Origin: an archaeon | GTDB lineage: Archaea > Nanobdellota > Nanobdellia > Woesearchaeales > GW2011-AR9 | Direction of reading: 5' to 3' | Assembly: GCA_023265925.1 (NCBI GenBank) | Contig: JAHFSD010000002.1 | Span: 2,569 to 66,568 of the forward strand | Length of the DNA: 64,000 bases | Shown: in pieces, positions 21,043 to 62,993 of the stretch | Layout of the letters: the number at the start of each line of letters is the position of its first letter | How positions within the stretch are numbered: the stretch's first letter is position 1 | Position numbers and translations under genes: made by a program | Notes under the pieces: generated by a model | Told to the model about the DNA's origin: nothing | The model's input: only the letters and a program-made list of their open reading frames with translations | The model's database searches: none

Positions 21043-22062
21043 ATGGTCATCATTGCCGGCAGGGAAATTAAGAATTTTAGTGAACCTTTCATTATAGCTG
21101 AAGTCGGCTCTAACCATAAGGGGGATCTCGCATTAGCCAAGCACTTGATCGATAAAGCAGCGCAATGCGGTGCGGACAGCGTTAAATTCCAGGTGTGGTC
21201 TAAAAAAAGCTTATTCAGCAAGGTGGTCTTCGCCAATAGGCCGGAGCTGGAAGAACAGATTGAACGCTACTCTTTGTCTCTGCCTGATTTCAAAGAACTT
21301 AAAGAATATGGTGATGCCCGGGGAATCATGATCTCAGCTTCAGCATTCTGCAAGGAAGAAGTGGATTTTTTGGTTAGGGAGGTCAATGTAGCCTACCTTA
21401 AAGTAGCTTCGATGGATGTTACTCATCTCCCCTTCCTGGAGTATGTAGCCCAGCAGGGCAAGCCGATAGTCATGTCTACGGGGCTAGCCAGCATTGCTGA
21501 AATTGATGAAGCAGTAACTGTCATTCACCGTTATAACCGTAACTTAATACTGCTTCACTGTACCAGCTTGTATCCTCAACAGGATGAACAATCTCATCTC
21601 AATAATCTCCCATTTTTACAGGAAACCTTTAATGTTCCGGTGGGCTATTCTGACCATAGTTTAGGTATAACTATTCCATTAGGTGCTGTCGTAAAAGGAG
21701 CGTGCTTGTTAGAGAAACATTTTGCTTTAAATAATCAAGATGAGAAGATTTGGGACCAAAATTTCTCCGCCAGTCCAGAAGAATTGAAGAATTTAGTTGT
21801 GGAAAGTAAAAGGTTAGTGAGAGCTTTGGGCAACATTCGGATAACGCTGGATGCAGCCAAACTAAAACAGCGGGAAGTCATGAGGAGAAGCATAGTAACA
21901 TCGCGGCATCTGCCACAAGGACATATTTTAACTATAGAAGATCTCCTTTTCAAGCGCCCGGGAACTGGTCTGGAGCCCAAACAGGTGGCGATTGTGATTG
22001 GAAAACAACTTAAGCGTGATCTTGCACCTGATACTTTGTTAACTTGGGCCGATTTGTTGTAA
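21043..22062 (+). CDS. N-acetylneuraminate/legionaminate/pseudaminate synthase family (NeuB/LegI/PseI-like) with C-terminal SAF domain
   Basis: FIIAEVGSNHKGDLALAKHLIDKAAQCGADSVKFQ. GAGGAGG SD upstream. Confidence 0.85.
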   Translation: MVIIAGREIKNFSEPFIIAEVGSNHKGDLALAKHLIDKAAQCGADSVKFQVWSKKSLFSKVVFANRPELEEQIERYSLSLPDFKELKEYGDARGIMISASAFCKEEVDFLVREVNVAYLKVASMDVTHLPFLEYVAQQGKPIVMSTGLASIAEIDEAVTVIHRYNRNLILLHCTSLYPQQDEQSHLNNLPFLQETFNVPVGYSDHSLGITIPLGAVVKGACLLEKHFALNNQDEKIWDQNFSASPEELKNLVVESKRLVRALGNIRITLDAAKLKQREVMRRSIVTSRHLPQGHILTIEDLLFKRPGTGLEPKQVAIVIGKQLKRDLAPDTLLTWADLL

Positions 22063-22111
22063 ATAGAGTGGAGCAGTCAGTCAAATAGACAGTGAAATAG
22101 ACAGAAAGAAC

Positions 22112-22339
22112 ATGACTCCAGAAGCAATCTTATCCGAAGAGCGCGCAGCACAGCTCATTGAAAGGTGCACTGATTATCAGATAGAATCCATCCAGCTCAT
22201 TCCTGAAGGGGGTAGCCATTACAGTTTTAACTTGGTCTGCTCAGGTTACCCCCTTCAGGAACTCGGGATGGACTTCGTGATCTGTGGAGTGAAAAATTCA
22301 AGGAGTTACTCTTTAAAATCATTGTTAGTGGAACCGTAG
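22112..22339 (+). CDS. small hypothetical protein
   Basis: 75-aa ORF between neuB-like and neuA-like genes; no motif. Confidence 0.2.
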   Translation: MTPEAILSEERAAQLIERCTDYQIESIQLIPEGGSHYSFNLVCSGYPLQELGMDFVICGVKNSRSYSLKSLLVEP

Positions 22340-22487
22340 ATTACGTTCGATACGCTGATATTATCAGCGAAAAAACTAAGCAACCCAGGCGGCCATCAAT
22401 ACTTTAATAAAATGTCAATACTTTAATAAACAACGATACTAGAATCTAATCTAATATAATCTAATACAATATAATCTGATTTGAAAT

Positions 22488-23249
22488 ATGATTAACGGAA
22501 AACGAGTTTTGGCGTACATCCCCGCGCGAAGCGGCTCAAAAGGGATTAAAGATAAGAATATCATCGACCTATGCGGCAAACCGCTGATTGCCTATACCAT
22601 TGAGGCAGCAAGGCAGAGTAAATACATCGATCGGCTGATTGTTTCCACTGATTCCGCAGAGTACGCGTCCGTTGCTAGAAAATATGGGGCGGAAGTACCT
22701 TTCCTGCGTCCCGTTGAGTTAGCAACAGACACCTCTCCAGAGATGCATACGACTTTGCATCTTATGGAGTGGTTGGAAAAAGAAGGCTTGGCAGCATTTG
22801 ATATAATTATACGCCTGCAGGGGACGTCTCCCTTGCGCACGGCCAAAGATATTGACGGGGCTTTAACATTGTTTTTCCACAAAAATGCCGATACGATTAT
22901 CGGGGTCTGTGAGGCGAGAACCACCCCACTGGCGATGAATACCCTACCCGCCGATCACTCCATGCATGATTTTATTCCGGAATGGATCAAAAACAAAAAT
23001 AGGCAGGAGTTGCCTACCTATTATCAGCTTAACGGCGCCATTTTTATTGCGAACTGGAAATTTATCAGGGAACAAAAGAGTTGGTTTTCTGGAAAAAGTT
23101 ATGCTTATATCATGCCTCAAGAGCGATCCGTAGATATAGATAATCCGCTAGATTTAGAGTTTGCGAAGTTTTTGCTGGAGAACAAGTTAAAATCCAAAGA
23201 ATTTTCCACCGGTCCACAACAGGTGAGAAAATTGCCTTTGTGCGTCTGA
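22488..23249 (+). CDS. CMP-nonulosonic acid synthetase (acylneuraminate cytidylyltransferase family, NeuA/LegF/PseF-like)
   Basis: N-terminal AYIPARSGSKGIKDKNI is the CTP_transf_3 signature. Confidence 0.85.
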   Translation: MINGKRVLAYIPARSGSKGIKDKNIIDLCGKPLIAYTIEAARQSKYIDRLIVSTDSAEYASVARKYGAEVPFLRPVELATDTSPEMHTTLHLMEWLEKEGLAAFDIIIRLQGTSPLRTAKDIDGALTLFFHKNADTIIGVCEARTTPLAMNTLPADHSMHDFIPEWIKNKNRQELPTYYQLNGAIFIANWKFIREQKSWFSGKSYAYIMPQERSVDIDNPLDLEFAKFLLENKLKSKEFSTGPQQVRKLPLCV

Positions 23250-49590: not shown

Positions 49591-49988
49591 GCCTTGAGAA
49601 ATATTCTTTTATATTTAAAGGTTGGTGACGATAGATTCTCCCTAATCATCGGCATAGGCCTGTTTAATCGTTGTAAGTAGTTGAAATTTCTTTCCTAATT
49701 TTAATTTTATCTTTGCCCTTTCAGCTGCTCTTACACTTTCGGCAGATAAAGCGTTGCTTTTTACCACATTGGTTATAGCGGAATCCCGCTCTCACAATAT
49801 TCTCAAACGATTTACAAAAGATACAGGGCGTTTTCATATCCATCACCAGGTTAAAGAAAAGAAGTACTTATATCTAAATATGCTTAAGATTAAACGGTGT
49901 CACTCCGGCGCAATCTTTATAAACCACCCCCTGTCCCTAGCACAAATCCGTTATCACACTGGCCAGCAGGACTGGTTTATTGATATAG

Positions 49989-50076
49989 AGAATTCCGCTA
50001 ATTGAGTGACATATTGGCGGAATTCTTATATAGTCAATTCCGAAAAGGATGTAACCTAATAATCGGAATTGACTAT
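49989..50076 (+). other. two adjacent perfect hairpins (10-bp and 14-bp stems, 18-19-nt loops) sharing a gaattcc core; candidate sRNA/regulatory element about 150 nt upstream of rpl3
   Basis: 49989-49998/50017-50026 and 50030-50043/50063-50076. Confidence 0.4.
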
Positions 50077-50226
50077 ACCGGTGAGCTGCCTGCAAAGGCA
50101 ACCATCCTTGGTGTTCTGGGATGGAAGCCAGATAAAGGCAATTTGTACGAGTACCGTATCAATTGGCTTGGGCAACGAGATAAATATAGATGAGATAATT
50201 ATAGTATAGAATAGAGTATTATACAA

Positions 50227-51186
50227 ATGGGTAATATCCGCCATCCCCGACGGGGGAGTTTGCAGTACTGGCCGCGGAAACGCGCCAAGCATTCGTTAGC
50301 GAGAGTGCGTTCCTGGATTGCCGAAAGCAAGGCTAAACCGCTGGCCTTTATCGGCTATAAAGCCGGCATGACCCACCTGATGCTGACCGACAACCGGCCC
50401 AAGTCGCTGACCAAAGGCGAATCTATCGCCGTTCCTTCCACGATTATTGAATGCCCGCCGCTGAAAGTGGCCGGCCTGGCCTTCTACAAAATGACCATGA
50501 ATGGGCTGCAGAAAGTAACTTCCTTGATTTCTAATCCGGAAAAACATCTCTCCCGGTTAATTCCCCTCGCCAAAAAACAGCCCAAGGAATTTCCTGCCCC
50601 GGAAACCTTTGATGATCTGCGATTGCTGGTTCATACCACGACGGAATCCATTCCCGCCGGCACCAAAAAGCCAAAGTTATTGGAAGTTGCCATCGGCGGG
50701 ACAAAAGACGAGAAAATTAAGTATGCCCAAAGCCTGCTGGGGAAAGAACTGGCCATTACTGACGTGTTTGATCCGGGAAATCAGGTTGATGTTCGCGGCA
50801 TTACCAAAGGCAAGGGCTTTCAGGGAACGGTCAAGCGTTACGGCGTTCCCGTGCGGCAGCACAAGGCAGAAAAAACTAAACGCGGCATTGCCACTCTAGG
50901 ATCATGGACGCCTAAGCGGGTAGAGTTTACGGTTGCCCAGCCCGGACGGATGGGCTACCATCTCCGGACAGAATATAACAAGCAGATCCTGAAGATTGGC
51001 ACAAAAGGGAGTGAGGTGACGCCGGCGGGCGGGATCACCAAATATGGCCTTGTCCGGAATTCCTATCTTCTGCTTAAAGGTTCGGTGATGGGACCACGAA
51101 AACGGGCCGTCGTGATGACTGCTCCCTACCGGCCGAATTATAAAGTGCCTAAGGATGCTCCGGAAATAACCTACATTTCCAAATGA
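50227..51186 (+). CDS. rpl3: 50S ribosomal protein L3 (uL3)
   Basis: Archaeal uL3 N-terminus MGNIRHPRRGSLQYWPRKRA. Confidence 0.9.
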   Translation: MGNIRHPRRGSLQYWPRKRAKHSLARVRSWIAESKAKPLAFIGYKAGMTHLMLTDNRPKSLTKGESIAVPSTIIECPPLKVAGLAFYKMTMNGLQKVTSLISNPEKHLSRLIPLAKKQPKEFPAPETFDDLRLLVHTTTESIPAGTKKPKLLEVAIGGTKDEKIKYAQSLLGKELAITDVFDPGNQVDVRGITKGKGFQGTVKRYGVPVRQHKAEKTKRGIATLGSWTPKRVEFTVAQPGRMGYHLRTEYNKQILKIGTKGSEVTPAGGITKYGLVRNSYLLLKGSVMGPRKRAVVMTAPYRPNYKVPKDAPEITYISK

Positions 51187-51193
51187 AACCAAA

Positions 51194-52000
51194 ATGAAAC
51201 TGCCCATCATTACGCTACAACAAGAACGAAAGGGAGAACGAGCCTTGCCCAGCCAGTTCCAGGAAGCGTATCGCCCGGACTTAATTCGCCGGGCCGTGCA
51301 GGCCCTGCAGAGCCGGCAGCGCCAGCCCTATGGTGCTTCGCCAACAGCAGGATTGCGTCATGCGCATGACGTCAGCAAGCGCCGGCGGGATTATAAGACC
51401 AGCTATGGCAAGGGAATAAGCCGGGTTGCCCGCAAAGTGCATACCAAGCGAGGCATGCAGATGAATTGGGTGGGGACATTTTCCCCGCAGACGGTGGGAG
51501 GAAGGCGGGCGCATCCGCCGAAAGCAATGAAGATCTGGGCGCAGAAAATCAATCAGAAGGAAAACCGCAAGGCAATTCGTTCCGCCATGGCGGCCACGGT
51601 GAGCAGGCAATTGGTCCAGCAGCGCGGGCATAAACTGCCGGAAGGGTATCCGTTTATCATTGATGCTGCCCTGGAAACGATGAATAAGACTGCGGAAGTG
51701 GAAAAAGCCCTCACTGCTTTTGGTTTTGAGCAGGAATTAGCCCGTTCGGGACAGAAAAAAATCCGGGCCGGAAAAGGCAAACGGCGCGGGCGGAAATATA
51801 AACGCAAGAAAGGCATTTTAATTGTGGTGAGTGGCGATTGCCCTTTATTGAAAGCAGGAAAAAACATTCCCGGGACGGAGATCATTCCCGTCCGGGCCCT
51901 GAATGCCGATCTGCTTGCTCCTGGCGGGTTGCCCGGGCGCGTCACGCTTTGGACGAGTACCGCGCTTGATCAGGTCGAGCAGAAGAAATTATTCACTTAA
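51194..52000 (+). CDS. rpl4: 50S ribosomal protein L4 (uL4)
   Basis: Position and sequence match archaeal L4/L1e. Confidence 0.85.
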   Translation: MKLPIITLQQERKGERALPSQFQEAYRPDLIRRAVQALQSRQRQPYGASPTAGLRHAHDVSKRRRDYKTSYGKGISRVARKVHTKRGMQMNWVGTFSPQTVGGRRAHPPKAMKIWAQKINQKENRKAIRSAMAATVSRQLVQQRGHKLPEGYPFIIDAALETMNKTAEVEKALTAFGFEQELARSGQKKIRAGKGKRRGRKYKRKKGILIVVSGDCPLLKAGKNIPGTEIIPVRALNADLLAPGGLPGRVTLWTSTALDQVEQKKLFT

Positions 52001-52003
52001 ACC

Positions 52004-52297
52004 ATGGCAAAAAAAATACAACCGCCAACCGGAACAGTTAATCCCTATACCATCTTAAAGTATCCTCTCTCAACGGAGAAAAGCATCCGGCAGATGGAAT
52101 TTGAGAACAAAATCGTGTTCGTGGTGGATCCCGGCGCCACGAAACCAGATATCAAGCGGGCTCTGGAAGAGCTGTTTAAGGTCAAAGTGCTGAAGGTGAA
52201 CCTGCAGAATGCCTTTACGGGAGAAAAGCGAGCATATATAAAGCTGCGGCCGGAACATCTGGCTTCCGATATCGGGGCAGAACTAGGGTTGATTTAA
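52004..52297 (+). CDS. rpl23: 50S ribosomal protein L23 (uL23)
   Basis: 97 aa; position between L4 and L2. Confidence 0.85.
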   Translation: MAKKIQPPTGTVNPYTILKYPLSTEKSIRQMEFENKIVFVVDPGATKPDIKRALEELFKVKVLKVNLQNAFTGEKRAYIKLRPEHLASDIGAELGLI

Positions 52298-52298
52298 C

Positions 52299-53012
52299 AT
52301 GGGTAAAAATCTCATTCAACAGCGTCGTGGACGAGGCTCGTTACTGTATCGCTCACCTGGCTTTCGCTTTCAGGGAGCGGTCAAGCATAGCGCCGAGACG
52401 GCCACGACGGTCACGGGAAGAGTGGATGACATCATCCATTGTGCTGGCCACTCGGCGCCCTTGCTGCAACTCTCTTTATCGACTGGTACCTCCGCGTTGG
52501 TATTTGCGCCGGAAGGCATCAGTGTCGGTGCTGAGCTTCAGATCAATACCACGGAAGTGAAGGACGGCAATGTCCTGCCCTTATCGGCCATCCCGGAGGG
52601 AACGGCAATTCATAACATTGAGCTTCATCCCGGTGATGGAGGAAAAGTAGTTCGTTCCTCGGGAACGTCGGCTCGCATCGTGGCAAAAACGGAACAGGGC
52701 GTGCTCATAAAATTGCCATCACGAAAAGAGCGGTTATTTCAGCCGGCCTGCCGGGCAGCGATCGGTGTGGTGGCGGGCGCCGGAAGATTAGAGAAGCCCT
52801 TCCTGAAAGCGGGGACGCGCTTCTGGAAGATGAAAGCCAAGAATAAGCTCTATCCGCGGGTCTGCGGCATTTCCATGAACGCGGTCGATCATCCGTTTGG
52901 CGGGAAGGGCTCCCATACCAAAGGGCGGCCGACCCAGTCGCCGAGAAGTGCTCCCCCCGGACGAAAAGTGGGAAAGATTGCACCAAGAAGGACGGGAAGA
53001 AGGAAGATGTAA
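52299..53012 (+). CDS. rpl2: 50S ribosomal protein L2 (uL2)
   Basis: MGKNLIQQRRGRGS...GGKGSHTKGRP. Confidence 0.9.
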   Translation: MGKNLIQQRRGRGSLLYRSPGFRFQGAVKHSAETATTVTGRVDDIIHCAGHSAPLLQLSLSTGTSALVFAPEGISVGAELQINTTEVKDGNVLPLSAIPEGTAIHNIELHPGDGGKVVRSSGTSARIVAKTEQGVLIKLPSRKERLFQPACRAAIGVVAGAGRLEKPFLKAGTRFWKMKAKNKLYPRVCGISMNAVDHPFGGKGSHTKGRPTQSPRSAPPGRKVGKIAPRRTGRRKM

Positions 53013-53067
53013 TAGTAAATCTTATCAATAATAAAAAATAACAAAATAATAATAATATAATCACAAA

Positions 53068-53448
53068 ATGGTCAAAGAATTTCGCTGGCACGGGAAGACG
53101 GAAGAGGAAGTGAAGAAGTTAGACCTTCGTGAATTCCTGCCGCTCGTTCCGGCACGAGCCAGGCGCAGCCTGAAACGCGGCTTTACCGATTTACAGAAAC
53201 GATTGCTGGCCCGGGTGGAAAAAGATGAAAAAAACATCCGCACCCAGTGCCGCGACATGATCATCATCCCCAGCATGATCGGGAAAACTATCAAAGTGCA
53301 TCATGGCCGGGATTATCTGCCGGTCCTGATCACGGTGGAAATGCTTGGCCACACGCTGGGGGAATTTGTCATGACCCGCAAGCCCGTCAGCCACAGTGCT
53401 GCCGGCATCGGTGCCACACGATCAAGCAAAGCCATCTCCGCACGATAA
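53068..53448 (+). CDS. rps19: 30S ribosomal protein S19 (uS19)
   Basis: [28 protein letters not shown]. Confidence 0.9.
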
Positions 53449-53460
53449 CCATAAATCATC

Positions 53461-54033
53461 ATGAAAACCATGGCCACGACCACAACACCATCATCAGCAA
53501 CTCCACTGACTGCCATCGCTACGATGCGGAACGTGCCAATCTCGACTAAGCATGCCGTAATGGTTTGCCGCAGCGTGCGCTATCAGGATACCGCTTCCGC
53601 CAAGAAACTGTTGAATGAGGTCATGGCCCTGAAGACGCCCATAGCCTATCCGCGCTCTAACTTTGACTTGGGCCATCGGCGGGGGATTGGGCCGGGCCGT
53701 TATCCACAGAAAGTGGCCAGGGAAGTATTGCGCCTGATTAAATCGGCAGAAGCGAATGCACAGGTGAAAGGATTAACTACGACCAATTTAAAAATCACTA
53801 AGCTGATGGCACACAAAGCATCTATTCCATTTACGGGAAACCGCTGGTTTCACCGCACCAAGCGGTCGCACCTGGAGATTGAAGTGCAGGAGAGGAAAGT
53901 GAAGGAGAGAAAGGTGAAGGAAACAGCAAAGGAAGGAAAGAAAGAAGAAGGAAAGGCAGGAAAAGCTCGAATGGAAAAGGGGCCAACAGCAGGGACAAAA
54001 CAGCCAGCTCTACAACAGGAGAACCATGATTGA
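53461..54033 (+). CDS. rpl22: 50S ribosomal protein L22 (uL22) with Lys/Glu-rich C-terminal extension
   Basis: Core uL22 followed by EVQERKVKERKVKETAKEGKKEEGK. Confidence 0.85.
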   Translation: MKTMATTTTPSSATPLTAIATMRNVPISTKHAVMVCRSVRYQDTASAKKLLNEVMALKTPIAYPRSNFDLGHRRGIGPGRYPQKVAREVLRLIKSAEANAQVKGLTTTNLKITKLMAHKASIPFTGNRWFHRTKRSHLEIEVQERKVKERKVKETAKEGKKEEGKAGKARMEKGPTAGTKQPALQQENHD

Positions 54034-54907
54034 ACGCAACTTCATTGCTCAGAAGACGAAAGAGTACTACCTTAAGAAATATATTAAGAATATGCTGACC
54101 AATGTCGGTATTTCGCAAATCAAGCTGAAAAAAATCCCTTTAGGTGAGAAAATCATCATTCACACCAGCCGGCCCAGCCTGGTGGTCGGGTCCAAGGGAT
54201 CTAACATCAAGGATTTGACCAGGACGCTGAAGAAAGAGTTTCAGCTGGAGAATCCGCAGGTGGAGATCAATGAAGTCAAAAATATCTTTTTGGATGCCCA
54301 GCTGGTTGCGGAGAAAATCGCTTCCTCGTTAGAGCGCTTTGGCTCAGCGCGTTTCAAAAGTGTCGGGCATAAAATTATGGAGAATGTGATGAATTCCGGT
54401 GCCTTAGGGGTGGAATTAGTGATTTCCGGCAAGATTCCCAGTGCCCGTGCCAAGAGTTGGCGGTTTTATCAGGGCTACCTGAAGAAATGCGGGGACATTG
54501 CCGTGGTCGGCGTGCGGCATGCGCAAGCTGCTGCTTTGCTCAAAAGCGGCATCATTGGCATTAAAGTCTCGATCATGCCGCCGGATTTACAGTTGCCGGA
54601 TCATGTCGAAGTCTTGGACGAGCCGATCAAGGTCGTGGAAGTAATTCCCACTGAACCGGAAAAAGCGGAAAAGAAGCGCAAGAGGGCAGCCAAATCAACG
54701 CCAAAAAAGAAGACGGTCAGGAAAAAAGAAGAACAATCAGGGAAAGCAGCGGCAGATAGCGGCAGCGTCCCAGCAGCAGCACTACTACCATCGGGACCGC
54801 CTGTTGTACAACCTGCTGCACTACCTGTTGTACCGGAAGAGTTGGCGGAAACTGCAACAGAAACAGCAACAACAGCAGCAACAGTAGAGAACGGTGAAGG
54901 GCAATGA
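54026..54907 (+). CDS. rps3: 30S ribosomal protein S3 (uS3) with long Ala/Pro/Thr-rich C-terminal extension
   Basis: KH domain core; ~90-aa low-complexity tail. Confidence 0.9.
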   Translation: MIERNFIAQKTKEYYLKKYIKNMLTNVGISQIKLKKIPLGEKIIIHTSRPSLVVGSKGSNIKDLTRTLKKEFQLENPQVEINEVKNIFLDAQLVAEKIASSLERFGSARFKSVGHKIMENVMNSGALGVELVISGKIPSARAKSWRFYQGYLKKCGDIAVVGVRHAQAAALLKSGIIGIKVSIMPPDLQLPDHVEVLDEPIKVVEVIPTEPEKAEKKRKRAAKSTPKKKTVRKKEEQSGKAAADSGSVPAAALLPSGPPVVQPAALPVVPEELAETATETATTAATVENGEGQ

Positions 54908-55134
54908 AAATCATGAAAGAACTGCGTGATCTCAACCGGGAAGAACTTCATTCCCGGCAGCGGGAGTTGCAGAAGGAGCTGTTAAAGCTGAACGTCTCTG
55001 TTTCCACCGGCGTGAATCCTGCTAATCCGGGAAAACTCCGGCTGGCTAAAAAGAACATTGCCCGCCTCACCATGCTGCTCAGCGAGAAACAAAATATCCA
55101 CGAGAAACAAAATCAGGAGGTCTCCCGGCGATAA
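54904..55134 (+). CDS. rpl29: 50S ribosomal protein L29 (uL29)
   Basis: MKIMKELRDLNREELHSRQRELQKELLKLN. Confidence 0.85.
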   Translation: MKIMKELRDLNREELHSRQRELQKELLKLNVSVSTGVNPANPGKLRLAKKNIARLTMLLSEKQNIHEKQNQEVSRR

Positions 55135-55137
55135 ACC

Positions 55138-55446
55138 ATGGTGGATGTCTGTAACCAGTGTGGACTGCCGCAGGACTTATGCGTCTGTGAGACAATTGCC
55201 CGTGAGCAGCAGAGAATCACCGTGCAGATTGAAAGAAGAAAGTTTGGGAAAAAATATACCATTGTCGGCGGGATGGGCAAGGAAGCTAACATTGAGGAAA
55301 TCCTGCGTAAATTGAAAAACAAGTTTGCCTGTGGCGGCACGGCCAAGACCGGGCAAATCGAGCTGCAGGGTGACCATACTACCAGAATGAAAGCAGCGTT
55401 AGTCGAGCTGGGTTTTCCGGTAGAAACCATTGATGTAAAAGTGTGA
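55138..55446 (+). CDS. translation initiation factor aIF1 (SUI1)
   Basis: SUI1 core QIERRKFGKKYTIVGGMG...FACGGT. Confidence 0.85.
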   Translation: MVDVCNQCGLPQDLCVCETIAREQQRITVQIERRKFGKKYTIVGGMGKEANIEEILRKLKNKFACGGTAKTGQIELQGDHTTRMKAALVELGFPVETIDVKV

Positions 55447-55482
55447 AACTGTCAAACTATAAAATCATAAAACTGTCAAACT

Positions 55483-55728
55483 ATGAAACCATTTGCCGGA
55501 GAGCTGATCGGGAAGACCATTGAGATTGTGGGGGCCACGAATCCAACACTGAACGGAAAGAAAGGAACCATCATCAACGAAACCAAAATGACCATCACTT
55601 TACGCCAGGGAACGCGAATGAAAACAATCCTGAAAAGTGCCATTGTGCGCTTGAAATTGGCCGACCGCCTGTTGGAAGGAAGAAGCCTTCTGGGCCGGAC
55701 GGAGGAACGACTTAAATGGCATCACTAA
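55483..55728 (+). CDS. rnp1: RNase P protein component 1 (Rpp29/Pop4)
   Basis: Conserved position between L29/SUI1 and S17 in archaeal operons; Rpp29-like beta-barrel sequence. Confidence 0.7.
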   Translation: MKPFAGELIGKTIEIVGATNPTLNGKKGTIINETKMTITLRQGTRMKTILKSAIVRLKLADRLLEGRSLLGRTEERLKWHH

Positions 55729-55824
55729 TAGCACCACTAATATATACCACTAATATGATACCACTACTAATGGCATCATTAACATACATCACTAACATGA
55801 CATCAGTAACATGGCACCACTAAC
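55729..55824 (+). repeat. degenerate about 14-bp tandem repeat (~8 units, a[ct]cactaa[ct]at..) running into the rps17 start codon
   Basis: Units atggcatcactaata / atggcatcattaaca / atgacatcagtaaca / atggcaccactaaca. Confidence 0.6.
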
Positions 55825-56134
55825 AGTGCTGGGTGTGGCGTCCCCCGCCAAAAGCTGTACGGACGGGAAATGTCCCTTCCACGGAACGGTTACGGTAAAG
55901 AAAGAACTCTTTACCGGGAAGGTGGTTAAGAAAGACATCAATCGTTCCGCCACCATTGAATGGTTCCACTCACAGTACATTCCCAAGTATGAACGGTTTG
56001 CCTGGCGCCGGTCGCGAATGCGAGTGCATAACCCCTCCTGCCTTGACGCTGCTCCCGGTCAGAACGTGCTGGTGGCTAAAACGCGGCCGTTAAGCAAGAC
56101 AAAACATCACGTCATCCTGAAGGTGATCTCATGA
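55811..56134 (+). CDS. rps17: 30S ribosomal protein S17 (uS17)
   Basis: Sequence and position. Confidence 0.9.
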   Translation: MAPLTVLGVASPAKSCTDGKCPFHGTVTVKKELFTGKVVKKDINRSATIEWFHSQYIPKYERFAWRRSRMRVHNPSCLDAAPGQNVLVAKTRPLSKTKHHVILKVIS

Positions 56135-56532
56135 AAGCGTTACCGAGCAGGATCGGGCGGCCCCTGCCCTTGCAGGCGACGGTAGAAGTCTGTGACAATT
56201 CCGGCGCTAAGCTGTTGAAGATCGTCGCCGTGAAAGGGCATAAAACTGTTCGCGGACGGGTGCCCGCTGCTGGTATCGGTGATTTTGTCCTAGCGTCGGT
56301 GAAGAAGGGGAAGTTAGAGCTGCGTAAAACGGTGGTGCCAGCCATCATTGTGCGGCAGCGCAAAGAATTCCGCCGGGCCGACGGCATGCGCGTTCAATTT
56401 GAGGACAATGCCGCCGTCGTGCTGAAAGACGACAAAGGAAATCCCAAAGGGACATTATTTAAGGGTCCGATCGCCAAAGAAGTTGCCGAGCGCTGGCCGG
56501 CAGTAGCTAAAGTAGCCAGCATGATACTGTAA
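56131..56532 (+). CDS. rpl14: 50S ribosomal protein L14 (uL14)
   Basis: ATVEVCDNSGAKLLKIVAV. Confidence 0.9.
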   Translation: MKALPSRIGRPLPLQATVEVCDNSGAKLLKIVAVKGHKTVRGRVPAAGIGDFVLASVKKGKLELRKTVVPAIIVRQRKEFRRADGMRVQFEDNAAVVLKDDKGNPKGTLFKGPIAKEVAERWPAVAKVASMIL

Positions 56533-56571
56533 TGCATGATACTGAATGATACTGTAATTTAGAAAGCAAAA

Positions 56572-57027
56572 ATGATTGATATGATCAACAGGACTACCAT
56601 GACCAACCGGAAACCATTTTCCACCGCCTGGAACAGCAGCACCCGGCCGGGGAAGCAGCGGAAGTATAGCTATACTGCCCCGCTTCATCGCCGGCAAGCC
56701 CTGATGCACGCTCACTTAGCCAGGGAACTGCGTACGAAGTACGGCTATCGCCACCTGCAGGTGCGCACGGGAGACACGGTCAAAGTAATGCGTGGCCAGT
56801 TTGCCAAAAAGGAAGGGAAAGTTGAACGCGTCCAGCTGCGCTATGGCAAAGTCTATGTGGCGGGCATAGAATTGATCAAGAAAGATGGCACGAAACGGCC
56901 GTATCCCCTTCACCCCTCTAATCTGCTGATCACGGCACTCGAATTAGGCGACCGATACCGTAAAGAAAAGTTAGAATCAAAAATCAGAATCAAAGAAAGA
57001 TCAGAATCAAAGCTCAAGAGCACGTAG
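56572..57027 (+). CDS. rpl24: 50S ribosomal protein L24 (uL24, KOW) with repeat-encoded C-terminal tail
   Basis: GDTVKVMRGQFAKKEGKVERV. True start may be an internal Met. Confidence 0.8.
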   Translation: MIDMINRTTMTNRKPFSTAWNSSTRPGKQRKYSYTAPLHRRQALMHAHLARELRTKYGYRHLQVRTGDTVKVMRGQFAKKEGKVERVQLRYGKVYVAGIELIKKDGTKRPYPLHPSNLLITALELGDRYRKEKLESKIRIKERSESKLKST

Positions 57028-57061
57028 CTAAAGAACAGGTAAATAAAGAACACGGAAACAA

Positions 57062-57757
57062 ATGAAACTGCACCTGAAACAGATTACCGCACCTAAAACG
57101 TGGATAGTTCCCCGCCAACGGCGCCGATTTATCCTTCGCCCCCGGCCGGGCGGGCACCCGGTAGAGTTAGGGCTACCTCTCGGCCTTATCATTCGTGACG
57201 TGCTGCAGTACGTTTCCACGACTGCTGAAGCCGGCAAACTGTTGCAGGCACAGGAAGTCCTGATTGATGGAAGGCGCAGGACCGATCCTCATTTTCATGT
57301 CGGCCTGTTTGATGTCCTTTCTTTCCCCCGGCTGAAGAAAAATTATCGTCTCGTGCTCGATGGCAAGGGCCGGGTGGTCATCCGGGAAATTCCTGCTGCG
57401 GAAAGTTCCCTGAAACCCTGTAAAGTGATTGGGAAAACTGTGCTGAAAAAGGGCCAGATACAGTATAACTTACATGATGGGAAGAATATCATCGTCAAGG
57501 AAAACATTAAGGAAAAAGCAAATGTTGGCGATACGTTTGTTCTGCACCTGCCCCAGCTGAGCGTCCAGTCTATTTTACCTTTACAGCCCGGCATGCTGGT
57601 GTTCCTGACTAAGGGGAAGCATAGCGGCCAGCTGGGCCGGCTGCAGGAGCTGCGGGGGACCGAAGCGCGGTATCTCATTGACCAGACACCGGTAGAGACG
57701 GCGAAAGCGTACCTGTTCGTGGTGGGCGAAAAGACGGCAGTAGCAACGGTAACATAA
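57062..57757 (+). CDS. rps4e: 30S ribosomal protein S4e (eS4)
   Basis: MKLHLKQITAPKTWIVPRQ. Confidence 0.9.
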   Translation: MKLHLKQITAPKTWIVPRQRRRFILRPRPGGHPVELGLPLGLIIRDVLQYVSTTAEAGKLLQAQEVLIDGRRRTDPHFHVGLFDVLSFPRLKKNYRLVLDGKGRVVIREIPAAESSLKPCKVIGKTVLKKGQIQYNLHDGKNIIVKENIKEKANVGDTFVLHLPQLSVQSILPLQPGMLVFLTKGKHSGQLGRLQELRGTEARYLIDQTPVETAKAYLFVVGEKTAVATVT

Positions 57758-57759
57758 AA

Positions 57760-58263
57760 ATGGCAAATTCCATGAAAGAGATCAACGTGGCTAAAGTCAC
57801 GGTAAATATGGGGGCGGGAAAGAACGAAGAACTCCTGCAGCGAGGTTTAAAGCTGTTGCAGAACATGACGCCTCTTCAACCTGTCAAGACCTATACGAAA
57901 AAGCGCATTCCCGGCTGGGGGTTGCGTCCGGGATTGGCCATCGGGGCAAAAGTAACCGTGCGGGATAAGGCCCGGGCCTTTCTGCTCCGCTTGCTGGAGG
58001 CGAAGGGAAAAGTGATTTCACCAGACAACTTTGATGGTCAGGGAAACTTTTCCTTTGGCATTCCGGAATATATTGACATTCCCGGGCTGGAGTACGATCC
58101 GGAACTTAAAATCATGGGGATGGAAGTGGCGGTTACCCTGGAGCGGCCGGGCTACCGCGTCAAGCGGCGCAAGATCCGCCCCGGAAAAATCGGGAAGCAT
58201 CACCAGATCACTAAAGATGAAGCGATCCACTTCGTTCAAGATTTAGGGGTGACGGTCCAATGA
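57760..58263 (+). CDS. rpl5: 50S ribosomal protein L5 (uL5)
   Basis: Sequence and position. Confidence 0.9.
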
Positions 58264-58490
58264 GCTACAGCGATTGGCGCAAGGCCTTTACCCAACTGAA
58301 CGCCAAGCCAGTTAAGAAAGCGAAGTATGTTAAATTTAACTCTCCCAAACCAAGAAGCTGTGGCTTTTCGTTACGAAAATGCCGCAACTGCGGCCGGATC
58401 CGGGGGCATGTCAACAAATACGGGCTGCATCTCTGCCGGCAATGCTTCCGCGAGATGGCCACGGACTTAGGATTTAAACAATACAGCTAA
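58260..58490 (+). CDS. rps14: 30S ribosomal protein S14 (uS14, zinc-binding type)
   Basis: [22 protein letters not shown]. Confidence 0.85.
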
Positions 58491-58549
58491 AAAAGGTACA
58501 CTATGGACAAACCACAGTACAATAAGTACAGTACATTCATAGACACACT

Positions 58550-58939
58550 ATGTTAAACGACCCACTGGCCGCGGCCTTAACCAAGATCATGAACGCCGAG
58601 AAAGTCGGTAAGAAGGAGGTAGAGGTCCGTCCGGCGTCCAAGCTCATTAAGAAAGTGCTGACGATTCTCAACGATCATTCTTATGTGGGGATGTATGAGG
58701 AAGTGCCGGATGGCCGGGCCGGCATATTAAAAGTGCATCTTTTAGGAAATGTCAACTGGTGCGGCGTAATCAAGCCACGGTTCTCGGTCAAATGCACGGC
58801 GTTTGAAAAGTGGGAAAAGCGGTACCTGCCCGCCAAGGATTTCGGCCTGCTGATTGTCTCGACGCCACTGGGCGTGCTGAGCCATTCCCAGGCAAAAGAA
58901 AAGCGGACGGGAGGAAAATTAATCGCCTACTGCTACTAA
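58550..58939 (+). CDS. rps8: 30S ribosomal protein S8 (uS8)
   Basis: Sequence and position. Confidence 0.9.
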   Translation: MLNDPLAAALTKIMNAEKVGKKEVEVRPASKLIKKVLTILNDHSYVGMYEEVPDGRAGILKVHLLGNVNWCGVIKPRFSVKCTAFEKWEKRYLPAKDFGLLIVSTPLGVLSHSQAKEKRTGGKLIAYCY

Positions 58940-58945
58940 CTTAAT

Positions 58946-59512
58946 GTGATGGCCATGATCAAACCAGGATTAACACGGGAAATTGCACTGCCGGCGGGAG
59001 TGAGCGCTTCCCTTCGCCATACTACCGTCATTATCAGAGGTTCAGAGGGTGAAGCGCAGCGGGACATCAACCACCCTCACGTCAAAGTCAGTGTTGAAAA
59101 GGATAATGAAAAGAATAAAATCGTCCTCTCCACCGTCCGGGGAACACGGCGGGAAAAGACCCTTCTTGGCTCTTTGGCCGCGCACCTTAAAAATCTGGTT
59201 AAAGGGGTCCAGGAGCAGCAGGTGTATAAGCTCAAGGTTTGTTCCGGGCATTTTCCCATGACGGTAACAGTAAGTGGCACAGAATTCGTCGTCAAGAATT
59301 TCCTGGGAGAAAGTGTTCCCCGAACTGTGGACGTCGTGCCCGGTGTTACCATCAAGGTCAATGACAAAGAAATCCTGGTGACCAGCCCCGATAAGGAAAA
59401 AGCGGGATTGATGACAGAACGCATTGAACAGCTCTGCCGGATCACTAATCGTGACGTGCGCATCTTCATGGACGGCATTTGGATCACCGAGAAAGCGGGG
59501 AAAGCAGTATGA
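58946..59512 (+). CDS. rpl6: 50S ribosomal protein L6 (uL6)
   Basis: Sequence and position. Confidence 0.9.
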   Translation: MMAMIKPGLTREIALPAGVSASLRHTTVIIRGSEGEAQRDINHPHVKVSVEKDNEKNKIVLSTVRGTRREKTLLGSLAAHLKNLVKGVQEQQVYKLKVCSGHFPMTVTVSGTEFVVKNFLGESVPRTVDVVPGVTIKVNDKEILVTSPDKEKAGLMTERIEQLCRITNRDVRIFMDGIWITEKAGKAV

Positions 59513-59536
59513 GGAAAAAAACATGAGGAAAGAAGT

Positions 59537-60166
59537 ATGAGCCTACTGGCATTGCGTAAGGAACGGAAACGGCATAAGCCAATTTTCGTCGTGAAAGAAG
59601 CACATCATGGCGGCCGGGTCAAGTGGCGCTGGCGCGCTGCCCGTGGTATCCATTCCACCGTGCGGCAGGTGCATCATGGCAAGCCGGCCATGCCTACTCC
59701 CGGCTATGGCTCGCCAAAAGCTGTCTATGGGTTGCATCCTTCGGGAATGGAAAGTGTGCTGGTGCATAATGCTGCGGAATTGCTGCGGCTGGATACGGCT
59801 CGGCAGGGAGTGTTGCTTTCATCTACTTTGGGCCTGAAAAAACGGCTGGAATTGCTGCGCCTGGCAGTGGAGAACAAAGTGCGGCTGCTGAATGGGCGTG
59901 ACCCGCAGCAGGAATTAGATCGGTTAACCGCTTCATTTACAGTGCGGAAGAAAGCGAAGCAGGAGCGCCAGACTGACCAGCAGAAAAAGCAGGCAGAAAA
60001 AGAAAAGAAAGCGCAGGAGAAGAAGAAAAAGGCAGGGGAGAAAAAAGTTAAAGGGCCAGGGCCCGAAGAAAAAATAGAAGAGGTGAACCAGGAAGCCCTT
60101 CAACTGGAAGAAGCACAACGGGAAGAAAAAGAACTGGCAGAGAAAGTACTGATTAAACCGCAATAG
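59537..60166 (+). CDS. rpl32e: 50S ribosomal protein L32e (eL32) with Lys/Glu-rich C-terminal extension
   Basis: HHGGRVKWRWRAARGIHSTVRQ core; ~80-aa KE-rich tail. Confidence 0.85.
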   Translation: MSLLALRKERKRHKPIFVVKEAHHGGRVKWRWRAARGIHSTVRQVHHGKPAMPTPGYGSPKAVYGLHPSGMESVLVHNAAELLRLDTARQGVLLSSTLGLKKRLELLRLAVENKVRLLNGRDPQQELDRLTASFTVRKKAKQERQTDQQKKQAEKEKKAQEKKKKAGEKKVKGPGPEEKIEEVNQEALQLEEAQREEKELAEKVLIKPQ

Positions 60167-60232
60167 ATTAAAATAAGTTAAACTGGAATAGATTAAACCG
60201 CCATAAAAAGCATCAAAAAATAAAAAGATACC

Positions 60233-60691
60233 ATGAGACAAAAACGCCAATTAGCGGCAAAGGTATTGGGAACAGCACTGTCCAAGATACGGTTTGATCC
60301 GGCGGCTTTAGAAGACATTTCCAAAGCCATTACCCGGTCGGACATCCGGGGGCTGGCAGCTGTGGGGAAAATTCAGTATCGCCGGGATAACGAACAGTCG
60401 CGTGCCCGGGCACGGTACCTGTTGTTGCAGAAGCGGAAAGGGCGGCGAAAAGGGCATGGGACCAGCAAAGGAAGCAAGTATGCCACGGTTTCCCGCAAGC
60501 GGCAGTGGATCAACACCGTCCGTGCCCAACGGGCCTTCCTACAAAGTTTGAAAGAGAAAAACCTGCTTTCACCAGTGAATTACCGGCTGTTATACAGCAA
60601 AAGCAAAGGCGGCTCTTTCCGCAGTGTGCGGCATATTAAGCTGTACATCACGGAACATCAGCTGATTCAGAAACCATTTCAAAAACTATGA
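60233..60691 (+). CDS. rpl19e: 50S ribosomal protein L19e (eL19)
   Basis: Sequence and position. Confidence 0.9.
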   Translation: MRQKRQLAAKVLGTALSKIRFDPAALEDISKAITRSDIRGLAAVGKIQYRRDNEQSRARARYLLLQKRKGRRKGHGTSKGSKYATVSRKRQWINTVRAQRAFLQSLKEKNLLSPVNYRLLYSKSKGGSFRSVRHIKLYITEHQLIQKPFQKL

Positions 60692-61197
60692 AACCACAAA
60701 CAGTCCCTTACCGTCGGAAGAGAGAGCAGCGTACCAATTACCGGAAGCGGATCCGTCTGCTGCTCTCGGGGAAGCCGCGGTTAGTAGTCCGGATTACCAA
60801 TCAGAAGATCATCGCCCAGCTGATTGAGTTTGCTCCTCACGGCGATAAGGTGGTGGCGGGATTAGATTCCTTCTGCTTGCGCCAGATGGGCTGGCCCGCA
60901 TCCTCAGCATCCTGTAAGAGCATTCCGGCGGCGTATGCCACGGGCATATTAACAGGAAAAGAAGCAGTCAGGAAAGGCTACCAGGAAGCAATCCTTGATA
61001 CCGGGTTTAAATCAGCAGTGCGCCAGGGCAGAATTGCTGCTTTCCTGAAAGGGGCAGTGGATGCCGGGATGAAGATTCCTGTTACCAGTGATACTGGTGA
61101 GATCTTTCCCTCTCCCGAGCGGCTGAATGGCCAACATTTAAAAAAGGCAGTAAAGCTCAACGAAATGCTCAATGAAATCAGGGCAAAGGCGAAATAA
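60688..61197 (+). CDS. rpl18: 50S ribosomal protein L18 (uL18)
   Basis: MKPQTVPYRRKREQRTNYRKRIRLL. Confidence 0.9.
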   Translation: MKPQTVPYRRKREQRTNYRKRIRLLLSGKPRLVVRITNQKIIAQLIEFAPHGDKVVAGLDSFCLRQMGWPASSASCKSIPAAYATGILTGKEAVRKGYQEAILDTGFKSAVRQGRIAAFLKGAVDAGMKIPVTSDTGEIFPSPERLNGQHLKKAVKLNEMLNEIRAKAK

Positions 61198-61223
61198 CGA
61201 TATGGCAAAGGTGAAATGACAAT

Positions 61224-62042
61224 ATGGTGGATACTACGGTAATGCCGGTGGAAGAAGCCGCGGGCGTGGAAGGAGCAGCAGGAGTTCCCCCGGAAATAGA
61301 AGAAGTGCCGGAACTTCAGCGTTCCTGGAAGCCCGTAACGGCAGTCGGCAAGTTAGTGCAGCAGGGTGTGGTTGCTGATATCGAAGAGCTGTTTGCCAAA
61401 GGTTATCCGATTTTGGAAGCAGAAATTGTCAACTGCCTTCTTCCCACTATCGAAGAAGATTTGCTCTTGATCGGGCAGGCGAAGGGAAAATTTGGCGGTG
61501 GCCAGCGAAGAATCTTTCGCCAGACGCAGAAGAAAACGGCAGAAGGAAACCGGGTCCATTTTACCACCTGTGCCTTGGTGGGCAACCGCGACGGTTACGT
61601 CGGTGTGGGAACGGGGAAGAGCAAAGAGACGGTTCCTTCCCGCGATAAAGCCAAACGACAGGCACGGCTCAATGTAATCCGTGTCCGGCGCGGCTGTGGC
61701 AGCTGGGAATGCAACTGCCGCACAGCGCATTCCATTCCGTTTGCAGTGACGGGGAAATGCGGCTCTTCAGAAATCAGGCTGGTGCCGGCGCCGAAAGGAA
61801 AAGGGCTCTGTGTGGAAAGAGAAGTGGCTAAAATATTGGCAATGGCCGGCATTAAAGATGTCTGGAGCAAGACCTTTGGCCAGACCAAGACAAAATTAAA
61901 CCTGATCGGTGCAACCATTGCTGCCCTGAAGAAGCTATCACAGATAAAAATCCACCCGGAAGATATCGGGCACTTAGGCATCGTGGAGGGAAAAGTAAAA
62001 CCGGGCGCGACAGCTGAGATGACAGCTGAAGTGACATCTTAA
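61224..62042 (+). CDS. rps5: 30S ribosomal protein S5 (uS5)
   Basis: Sequence and position; N-terminal extension. Confidence 0.9.
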   Translation: MVDTTVMPVEEAAGVEGAAGVPPEIEEVPELQRSWKPVTAVGKLVQQGVVADIEELFAKGYPILEAEIVNCLLPTIEEDLLLIGQAKGKFGGGQRRIFRQTQKKTAEGNRVHFTTCALVGNRDGYVGVGTGKSKETVPSRDKAKRQARLNVIRVRRGCGSWECNCRTAHSIPFAVTGKCGSSEIRLVPAPKGKGLCVEREVAKILAMAGIKDVWSKTFGQTKTKLNLIGATIAALKKLSQIKIHPEDIGHLGIVEGKVKPGATAEMTAEVTS

Positions 62043-62043
62043 T

Positions 62044-62469
62044 ATGGCAACAGTAGCAGTCGTGTTGGTGCGTGGACAGGCGCGCGTCAGGAAAGATATA
62101 GTAGATACCATGAAGTTATTACGGCTTCACCGTAAAAATACCTGTGTGCTGTTGGAGGATACTCCTGCTCTGCGGGGGATGATCAATAAGGTGAAAGATT
62201 TTGTTGCCTGGGGAGAAATTTCCGAGGCGACGTTCCAAGAGTTGATTAAGAAACGGGGACAGTTGTATCAGGGCCGGCGTACCGACACCAAAGAAAAATA
62301 TCAATATAAAGCAGCAGCGATCCACGGGCAGAATTATAAGCCGTATTTTACCTTAAATCCGCCCCGGAAAGGCTTTGGCCGGAAAGGCATTAAAGTTGCC
62401 TATGCTGCCGGAGGGGCGCTAGGCTATCGGGGAGACAAAATCAACGATCTCATTCAACGCATGATCTAG
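62044..62469 (+). CDS. rpl30: 50S ribosomal protein L30 (uL30)
   Basis: Sequence and position. Confidence 0.9.
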   Translation: MATVAVVLVRGQARVRKDIVDTMKLLRLHRKNTCVLLEDTPALRGMINKVKDFVAWGEISEATFQELIKKRGQLYQGRRTDTKEKYQYKAAAIHGQNYKPYFTLNPPRKGFGRKGIKVAYAAGGALGYRGDKINDLIQRMI

Positions 62470-62531
62470 GGGATAGGAGATATAACAATACCCTAATATC
62501 CTCATTAACAACAATACAACAACAATAAACC

Positions 62532-62993
62532 ATGGTAATCCATCGGCGCAAGAAAGTGGGAAAGTACCGCGGCCATACTACTCACGGGCATGGCCATCGC
62601 AAGAAACGAAGGGGAGCTGGTTCCCGCGGCGGCCGGGGGAAAGCAGGTTCTGGAAAGAAATCCGGCCATAAAAAGAACCTGTTTGGTCCTCTGGGCCAGA
62701 AGGGCTTCACCAGTATTTGGCGGAAGGAAGATCACGTTGTCAATATCGGGTACTTTACCCCTTCCACTCTACAGAAATTCCTGCAGGAGGGAAAAGCAAC
62801 GAAAGATAAGGATAAAAGTAAAGAGAAAGAAGTGGTGGTGATTGATTTAACCAAGTTAGGGTATGATAAATTGCTCGGTTCCGGTTCTTTGTCAAGTTCC
62901 TTATCAATGAAGGTTAAATTTATCGTTCCGGCCTGGAGTGCCTCGGCCGAGAAGAAAGTAAAAGCTGCCGGGGGGGAGCTGGTGAAAGCCTAA
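62532..62993 (+). CDS. rpl15: 50S ribosomal protein L15 (uL15)
   Basis: HRKKRRGAGSRGGRGKAGSGKK. Confidence 0.9.
   Translation: MVIHRRKKVGKYRGHTTHGHGHRKKRRGAGSRGGRGKAGSGKKSGHKKNLFGPLGQKGFTSIWRKEDHVVNIGYFTPSTLQKFLQEGKATKDKDKSKEKEVVVIDLTKLGYDKLLGSGSLSSSLSMKVKFIVPAWSASAEKKVKAAGGELVKA

Follow-up and report, generated by a model that had tools for sequence, protein, structure and literature searches.

The spacers of a ribosomal-protein operon (rpl3 to rpl15, 50227–62993, + strand) were analysed in a 64,000-nucleotide (nt) stretch of archaeal DNA, positions 2,569 to 66,568 of the forward strand of contig JAHFSD010000002.1 (GenBank assembly GCA_023265925.1; this whole stretch is hereafter the window). 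Most of the spacer DNA of this operon consists of short tandem duplications that span or abut the stop/start junctions of neighboring genes. We consider that the duplications arose by ordinary mutation and were kept where they were harmless, and that they do not form a purpose-built translation signal, a reading to which we assign a probability of about two in three. What is established is that the repeats are built as described below and exceed chance, that relatives have the single-copy state, that each unit is restricted to its own spacer, and that RNA structure is lacking. The host is an uncultured DPANN archaeon, and the related metagenome-assembled genomes (MAGs) are of Woesearchaeota type. 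An earlier reading of the letters alone (the original prediction) had listed ten such repeats, all of which are found near the places given for them by exact search and are visible in the sequence, and had described them as mimics of the downstream start-codon context. The repeats are better described as tandemly duplicated stop/start junctions than as start-codon mimics.

Duplicated stop/start junctions in the operon spacers

To measure repeat content, we counted the covered bases, those lying in a 7-mer found again within 50 nt, and set the count against shuffles of each spacer that preserve its dinucleotides. The 12 operon spacers of at least 7 nt hold 367 covered bases against about 92 (91–93) in the shuffles, a 4.0-fold excess (z = 9), and 9–10 of the 12 are individually significant at p < 0.05, so the repeats are not what the base composition of these spacers (A 50%, G 11%) would lead one to expect. 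The excess falls to 2.2-fold in the other 28 spacers of the window (582 against 259 covered bases) and to 1.35–1.45-fold in its coding sequence, being concentrated in non-coding DNA and strongest in the ribosomal-protein operon. Most of the listed repeats are reported independently by Tandem Repeats Finder (TRF; rows at 55434–55492, 55715–55825, 56519–56554, 56979–57054, 59499–59541 and 61182–61227). The region is also represented in an independent Logan assembly (L127, SRR14366766), which is 100% identical over 2369 nt including the arrays, and in the ENA contig ERZ27297570, where gene spacing is the same as in the window.

Anchoring of the repeats was assessed from the recurrence, at each operon junction, of 7-mers containing a stop codon or a start codon. 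Stop-codon-containing 7-mers recur at 5 junctions against 2.1 expected (P = 0.008) and start-codon-containing 7-mers at 4 against 1.8 expected (P = 0.013). The claim that the repeated unit includes start-proximal sequence is thus borne out, but the stop context is copied equally.

At four junctions (rpl3/rpl4, rnp1/rps17, rpl6/rpl32e and rpl18/rps5) the working stop lies in the first copy and the working ATG in the last; all features described in this section are on the + strand. The simplest of these, rpl3/rpl4 (51181–51200), is an 11-nt tandem duplication of an ATGA overlap, AAATGAAAC-CA-AAATGAAAC, i.e. CCAAATGAAAC-CAAAATGAAACTG, in which the first ATGA supplies the rpl3 stop (51184–51186) and the second the rpl4 ATG (51194). 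The rpl6/rpl32e spacer (59499–59542; shuffle p = 0.001) contains a 14-nt unit three times, each with an ATGA (ATGAGG twice plus ATGAGC, 59509–59542); unit 1 provides the rpl6 stop (59510–59512) and the last unit the rpl32e ATG (59537), with the GAGG of each unit sitting 8 nt upstream of the next ATG. At rpl18/rps5 (61182–61225) a 22-nt unit containing 'TAA..ATG' is present in two copies that are 87% identical, the first with the working rpl18 stop (61195–61197) and a vestigial ATG (61202), the second with a vestigial TGA (61217–61219) and, minus its final base, the rps5 ATG (61224–61226).

The longest array of this kind, between rnp1 and rps17 (55716–55824), comprises eight units of 12–15 nt with the consensus ATGGCAYCACTAAY. 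Unit 1 encodes KWHH*, giving the last three rnp1 codons and the stop (55726–55728), and unit 8 encodes the rps17 ATG (55811) and the codons MAPLT. The original prediction was correct in its count of eight units, but the array starts at 55716, 10 nt before the rnp1 stop, and not at 55729, and the rps17 ATG begins unit 8 and does not end it. In three of the eight units the ATG has decayed, the decayed forms, including that in the first rnp1 copy described below, being ATA or AGC. Within the 64-kb window the unit occurs 5 times against 0.33 expected, always within this one spacer.

The SUI1/rnp1 spacer (55446–55494; p = 0.014) is made of a 24-nt unit in two copies, 91% identical, itself composed of the 8-nt subunits AAACTGTC / AAACTATA / AAATCATA; exact search places AAACTGTCAAACTAT at both 55446–55460 and 55470–55484. 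Here the copies meet the stop and start codons by their end bases only: copy 1 begins on the final base of the SUI1 stop (55444–55446) and carries ATA at the ATG position, and copy 2 ends in AT, the first two bases of the rnp1 ATG (55483).

At rpl14/rpl24, rpl24/rps4e and rpl32e/rpl19e the copied sequence is confined to the stop side, namely the upstream gene's last codons and stop. The first of these spacers (56519–56557; p = 0.002) holds three copies of (GC)ATGATACTG(T)AA (listed repeat 56521–56557), copy 1 being the last four rpl14 codons and stop (56530–56532). In the region that takes in the rpl24 C terminus and the rpl24/rps4e spacer (56979–57054; p = 0.029), a 17-nt unit is present two to three times inside the gene and a 15-nt unit (AAAGAACAsGkAAAy), present three times, spans the rpl24 stop (57025–57027). 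At rpl32e/rpl19e (60151–60201; p = 0.001) the stop context of rpl32e, GATTAAACCGC..ATAGATTAAA, recurs 25–40 nt downstream, with exact copies of ATAGATTAAA at 60163–60172 and 60188–60197.

Two further operon spacers show significant repeats. That of rps14/rps8 (58499–58556; p = 0.014) has CACTATG at 58499–58505 and 58546–58552 with GTACA-rich period-5 repeats between both copies, and that of rpl30/rpl15 (62508–62527; p = 0.022) has ACAACAATA twice with a period of 11, directly upstream of the rpl15 ATG (62532). Outside the operon, duplications are found in both spacers that flank a 75-amino acid (aa) open reading frame (ORF; 22112–22339) lying between a 339-aa gene (21043–22062) and a gene that the original prediction called neuA (22488–23249). 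These spacers (22078–22480; p = 0.013 and p = 0.003) contain a period-12 duplication (22078–22104) with AATAGACAG twice at 22084–22104, a 19-nt unit twice at 22397–22430, and AATCTAAT three to four times at 22443–22480.

Comparison of the window spacers with one another found no repeat family common to different spacers, each unit being private to its own. Periods are hierarchical (8 to 24 nt; 14 to 27 nt), and copy identity ranges over 69–100% overall and 69–93% in the main arrays, a combination typical of slippage repeated over time. All six TRF clusters that fall in the 3' ends of genes have periods that are multiples of 3, against junction periods of 11, 14, 17, 22 and 24; this contrast is the signature of general duplication filtered by reading-frame constraint. 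The coding and 3'-end repeat regions lie at 53882–53962, 54800–54884, 56979–57012, 59982–60046, 61155–61178 and 62009–62036; the repeats are in or near the 3' ends of rpl22, rps3, rpl24, rpl18 and rps5, and in rpl32e a period-23 repeat lies deeper inside the gene. Several of the encoded proteins seem long for their families (Rps3, 293 aa; Rpl22, 190 aa; Rpl24, 151 aa; Rpl32e, 209 aa; Rps5, 272 aa).

The operon runs in the order rpl3, rpl4, rpl23, rpl2, rps19, rpl22, rps3, rpl29, SUI1 (55138–55446), rnp1/Rpp29 (55483–55728), rps17 (55811–56134), rpl14 (56131–56532), rpl24 (56572–57027), rps4e, rpl5, rps14, rps8, rpl6, rpl32e, rpl19e, rpl18, rps5, rpl30, rpl15. Pfam families of the called genes agree with the identities from rpl23 to rpl6, except for rps14, which was uncalled there. 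Besides the spacers, the operon has six overlap junctions, five of them ATGA and one an 8-nt overlap. One 14-mer, AAACTATGAAACCA, occurs without a mismatch in the start contexts of both rnp1 and rpl18 (55478–55491 and 60683–60696), a lone pair compatible with chance; ATGAAAC (Met-Lys) opens rpl4 and rps4e too, which may reflect chance or a preferred initiation context.

The same junctions in related loci

For comparison we used 62 related loci, in each of which 24 operon genes were mapped. In a search of 185,579 species genomes, rps17 was matched best by MAGs labeled Woesearchaeota, Nanoarchaeota or archaeon, none above 72% identity, and genome and metagenome scans for close relatives or strain variants gave rps17 identities of at most 72–76%, the exact-protein matches being contigs of the same organism only. 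Spacer lengths vary freely across these lineages.

Where the window has tandem ATGA copies, two at rpl3/rpl4 and three at rpl6/rpl32e, relatives have one. At rpl3/rpl4, 12 of their loci have one ATGAAACTnCC overlap (−4) and 13 have a +1 gap; at rpl6/rpl32e, 6 loci have a single ATGA overlap, two of them reading ATGAGC. This single-copy junction polarizes the window state as derived by tandem duplication, a direction that is read from sequences of distant relatives (rps17 identity at most 72%) and is undated. The rps17 unit is present in none of the relatives' loci, its sole other locus being the identical copy of the region in L127, and the rnp1/rps17 spacers of relatives have no common motif. 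In relatives rnp1 ends in ERLKG*, and here it ends in ERLKWHH*, read from the first unit of the array. An ancestral 13-nt overlap of rnp1 and rps17 was considered as the source of the array and rejected, since the relatives' rnp1 ends in ERLKG* and has a short A-rich spacer or an ATGA after it. Growth of the array out of the start region of rps17, and its fusion to the end of rnp1, is more probable.

Duplicated junctions are also found in the relatives themselves, at rps8/rpl6 in L038 (TAGCCATGAAACA twice), rpl32e/rpl19e in L043, rps4e/rpl5 in L053 and rpl4/rpl23 in L004. Their overall repeat excess is ∼1.5-fold, and no locus has more than 40% significant spacers; the window lineage is an extreme case of a clade-wide tendency. 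By class of spacer the relatives' excess is 1.75-fold for convergent, 1.64-fold for divergent and 1.47-fold for co-directional spacers, and this similarity across classes indicates that it is not start-specific. Stop-anchored repeats are enriched among the relatives (z = 3.9) and start-anchored repeats not significantly so (z = 1.7). The comparison with related genomes proposed in the original prediction hence yields the repeat excess but not an enrichment specific to starts.

Larger insertions were also seen in the relatives' operons, of 700–950 nt between rpl2 and rps19 (L025, L028, L030, L033, L035 and L037, and also L004), of 330–880 nt between rps17 and rpl14 (L025, L030, L033, L035 and L037), and, in several relatives, of 600–1000 nt before rpl15. 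Inserted genes or mobile elements may account for them.

Origin of the duplications and alternative explanations

The mutational mechanism and the selective filter that we infer are as follows. Short tandem duplications made by replication slippage or by microhomology-mediated tandem duplication would create the spacers, with the duplicated segment spanning or abutting the stop/start junction of two tightly packed genes; the upstream gene would keep its stop in copy one and the downstream gene its ATG in the last copy, and neither would be harmed. Within a gene, an equal event would shift the frame and be removed by selection. With frame-shifting events purged inside genes, duplications should build up at gene junctions and, where their length keeps the frame, in C-terminal tails that the protein can spare. 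The mimicry of starts and stops would then be inherited and not selected, because the duplicated segment spans the stop/start junction, and vestigial ATGs would decay (ATA, AGC) or persist where a short ORF ends harmlessly at or near the real start. Of the two causes that the original prediction had offered, a local slippage or duplication bias accordingly agrees with the data: the repeats are head-to-tail, hierarchical and spacer-private, the rps17 unit is absent in relatives, all non-coding classes are enriched, and the 3'-end repeats keep to multiples of 3.

Microhomology-mediated tandem duplication has been reported as the dominant mechanism of tandem duplication in bacteria and archaea (bioRxiv 10.64898/2026.02.28.708716). 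The repeats described for it and for slippage resemble those found here in having head-to-tail copies of 8–30 nt, hierarchical periods, variable identity, enrichment in non-coding DNA and in-frame periods inside genes, and are reported to be universal, archaea included (same source). A difference from the general case is that duplication has here systematically taken in stop/start junctions, in an essential operon whose spacer DNA is for the most part made of such copies. Because the copies have diverged, flanking microhomology arms (at least 3–4 nt) could not be demonstrated convincingly; inspection by eye found at rpl18/rps5 only a GG after copy 2, and arms may have decayed.

Several observations weigh against so neutral an explanation. 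The 4.0-fold excess of the operon is greater than that of the other window spacers and of all 62 relatives (mostly 1–2.4-fold), which a uniform mutational bias does not predict, so an extra assumption is needed; candidate causes are young spacers derived from ancestral overlaps, instability of a very highly transcribed region, or selective retention. In the window's four convergent spacers no excess is seen (1.06-fold), although four are too few to carry weight. The duplications are reconstructed by comparison with distant relatives and not seen directly. Finally, chains of mini-ORFs bridge 6 of the 12 operon spacers against 2.8 expected from shuffles (P = 0.005), and the ATGs at 55716, 55755, 55770 and 55797 in the rps17 array fall in one common open frame, which hints at something beyond neutrality.

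The last two observations are those on which a rival explanation would build, one that we consider unlikely. It holds that the junction duplications were kept since vestigial ATG/stop pairs chain mini-ORFs across the spacers to the real start and could thus relay ribosomes. The operon genes preceded by spacers, mostly lacking a Shine-Dalgarno (SD) sequence, would depend on termination-reinitiation, each mini-ORF starting at or next to the previous stop, in an arrangement that may be likened to the ORFs of mycobacterial interspersed repetitive units (MIRUs) and to synthetic bicistronic designs. The six chains are all on the + strand. At rpl3/rpl4 the form is ATGA - MKPK - ATGA, a mini-ORF (MKPK*, 51183–51197) whose ATG (51183) overlaps the rpl3 stop and whose TGA (51195–51197) overlaps the rpl4 ATG; at rpl6/rpl32e it is ATGA - MRKKT - ATGA - MRKEV - ATGA, two 5-codon ORFs with ATGA at 59509, 59523 and 59537. 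The rpl18/rps5 spacer has MAKVK* with 5-nt hops on either side, and rps14/rps8 has 17 codons from the ATG at 58503 to the TAA at 58554–58556, which lies 4 nt after the rps8 ATG (58550). Short ORFs connect rpl14 to rpl24, and a 35-codon ORF (55716–55823) spans rnp1/rps17, beginning 10 nt before the rnp1 stop and ending in a TAA (55821–55823) 10 nt inside rps17, with a 13-nt overlap with each gene.

In favor of this proposal, in 4 of 5 clear cases (1/3 expected; manual count) the duplication period leaves a vestigial ATG and the vestigial stop that follows it in one frame, the four units of the rps17 array that keep their ATG all lie in the same frame with the three units in the other phase having lost theirs, and none of the 10 upstream stop triplets is in frame with the rnp1/rps17 ORF. 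Termination-reinitiation coupling operates at ATGA/TAATG overlaps (Huber et al. 2019, PMC6728339; 2023, PMC10666635), and the duplicated junctions of this operon repeat the ATGA motif, as judged from their sequence. In Haloferax and Escherichia coli the coupling collapses at a spacing of ∼20 nt (PMC10666635); spacers of 24–82 nt would otherwise uncouple the genes here, and mini-ORF chains could preserve coupling, as has been proposed for MIRU ORFs. Unlike the published coupling systems, this operon would couple its genes across chains of mini-ORFs; in the published data, spacers of ∼20 nt abolish coupling.

MIRUs offer a precedent (PMC12548453). Inserted in operon spacers, they contain an internal ORF that shares bases with the stop codon before it and the start codon after it (Supply et al. 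1997, as summarized in PMC12548453), and they share with the present arrays the tandem units between co-directional genes, the 4-nt ATGA geometry and the possibility that translational coupling persists. The rpl3/rpl4 and rpl6/rpl32e arrays have exactly this ATGA geometry; counted over the operon, an ORF overlapping the flanking stop and start by 4 nt is found strictly at these 2 junctions and loosely at 6. MIRUs are, by contrast, one dispersed and apparently mobile family of 40–100 bp at many loci, whereas here each spacer has its own junction-derived unit of 8–24 nt, and the rps17 unit is confined to its own spacer and absent from the relatives' loci.

Against the ribosome relay stand the six of 12 spacers that have no chain, five of them without any ATG, and the relatives, among whose 498 spacers chains are not significantly enriched (73 against 62.6, z = 1.65). 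The shuffled null also ignores tandem structure, and a duplicated junction gives a chain about one-third of the time without selection. The coherent frame of the rps17 array may likewise come from a duplicated 27-nt (9-codon) super-unit, the best-scoring period in TRF, and the tests were chosen post hoc on small samples.

By-eye inspection of the operon found SD-like sequences within the upstream gene at overlap-joined genes (AGGTGATC before rpl14, GGGGTGA before rps14, GGTGA before rpl29 and AGGAG before rps3), and none before most of the genes that lie behind repeat-built spacers. The exceptions are rpl32e, with a GAGG from the previous repeat unit, and rps5, with AGGTGA in copy 2 where copy 1 has AGGCGA.

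The second cause named in the original prediction, that the start-like repeats were selected as decoy or standby initiation sites, catching ribosomes ahead of the real start so as to hold or divert them, appears highly improbable. A ribosome standby site is a single-stranded platform beside a start site that is sequestered in a stable structure. RNA folding of eight spacers gave energies no different from those of shuffles (z −1.3 to +1.3) with no hairpin over any start, so in these eight there is no structure for a standby site to wait on. The A-rich, G-poor and unstructured spacers would favor SD-independent loading of the small subunit, and start-codon-containing repeats are enriched in the operon, as given above; the low structure nevertheless follows from base composition, repeats being unnecessary for it, and copies of the stop context are as frequent as those of the start context. 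Moreover, the ATG is mutated in several upstream copies, five operon spacers hold no ATG at all, the unit differs in every spacer, and relatives show no start-specific enrichment. Taken together, these results speak against selection for decoy or standby sites.

Similarly, there is little to recommend the idea that the rps17 array is a set of sites for an RNA- or DNA-binding regulator, or that 55716–55823 is the gene of a 35-aa hydrophobic peptide. CACTAA does recur every 12–15 nt, and a single open frame with four in-frame ATGs runs through the whole array. Outside this array, however, neither the window nor the relatives' loci contain the unit, the relatives' spacers at this junction have no motif in common, and translation of the putative peptide passes through the unit in two different frames, which places the repeat at the level of DNA and not of protein. 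Rfam gave no match at gathering score in the window and none at E ≤ 1 in 55400–55860, and a tRNA search gave no match.

Two other classes of start-proximal repeat invite comparison. Phase-variable simple-sequence contingency loci have perfect repeats in dispensable surface or restriction genes. They resemble the present case in having tandem repeats at or near start codons, but here the units are 69–93% identical, the genes encode essential ribosomal proteins, and no length difference separates the two assemblies, which are identical; neither near-perfect units nor, between assemblies, copy-number polymorphism is seen. The TAACTGA heptamers of Beggiatoaceae and cyanobacteria are, like the repeats here, short tandem direct repeats upstream of genes in transcribed spacers; they form one genome-wide intergenic motif with 169 sets, suggesting a trans-acting factor (PMC4679880), whereas here no motif is common to the spacers.

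Last, coincidental matches within A-rich spacers of low complexity, or an error of assembly, would suit the AAT-rich rpl2/rps19 spacer (repeats non-significant, p = 0.17) and the individually unimpressive two-copy 7–9-mers, but are refuted by the four-fold excess over dinucleotide-preserving shuffles and by the exact agreement of two independent assemblies across the arrays, with concordant spacing in ERZ27297570.

Other features and implications

Elsewhere in the window, neither Rfam at E ≤ 1 nor the tRNA search matched a 636-nt non-coding stretch upstream of rpl3 (49591–50226), which contains a perfect 15-nt inverted repeat (50029–50043 / 50063–50077, with a 19-nt loop) and several GGAATTC-containing repeats, and could be an unannotated RNA or a regulatory region. 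The top-scoring tandem repeat of the window (15458–15541; a 30-nt unit present 2.7 times, with a 15-nt sub-period) is in frame near the 5' end of the gene for a 597-aa protein (13827–15620, − strand).

A limited literature search found no published account of the junction-spanning arrangement or of MIRU-like mini-ORF geometry in archaea. If the ribosome relay were true, coupled gene pairs would tolerate insertions, and the MIRU principle would extend to archaea, arising de novo from each local junction as a general route by which overlapping genes separate with their stoichiometric coupling kept. The explanation that we favor, duplication by ordinary mutation kept where harmless, gives a concrete sequence-level view of how a spacer may be born, in which duplication of an ATGA overlap parts two tightly packed genes and damages neither, and it would explain the pseudo-starts and pseudo-stops that litter such spacers. 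For start-codon annotation in DPANN MAGs this matters, as upstream ATG copies can mislead gene callers, and it counsels caution more generally, in that start-like repeats upstream of genes are not necessarily regulatory.

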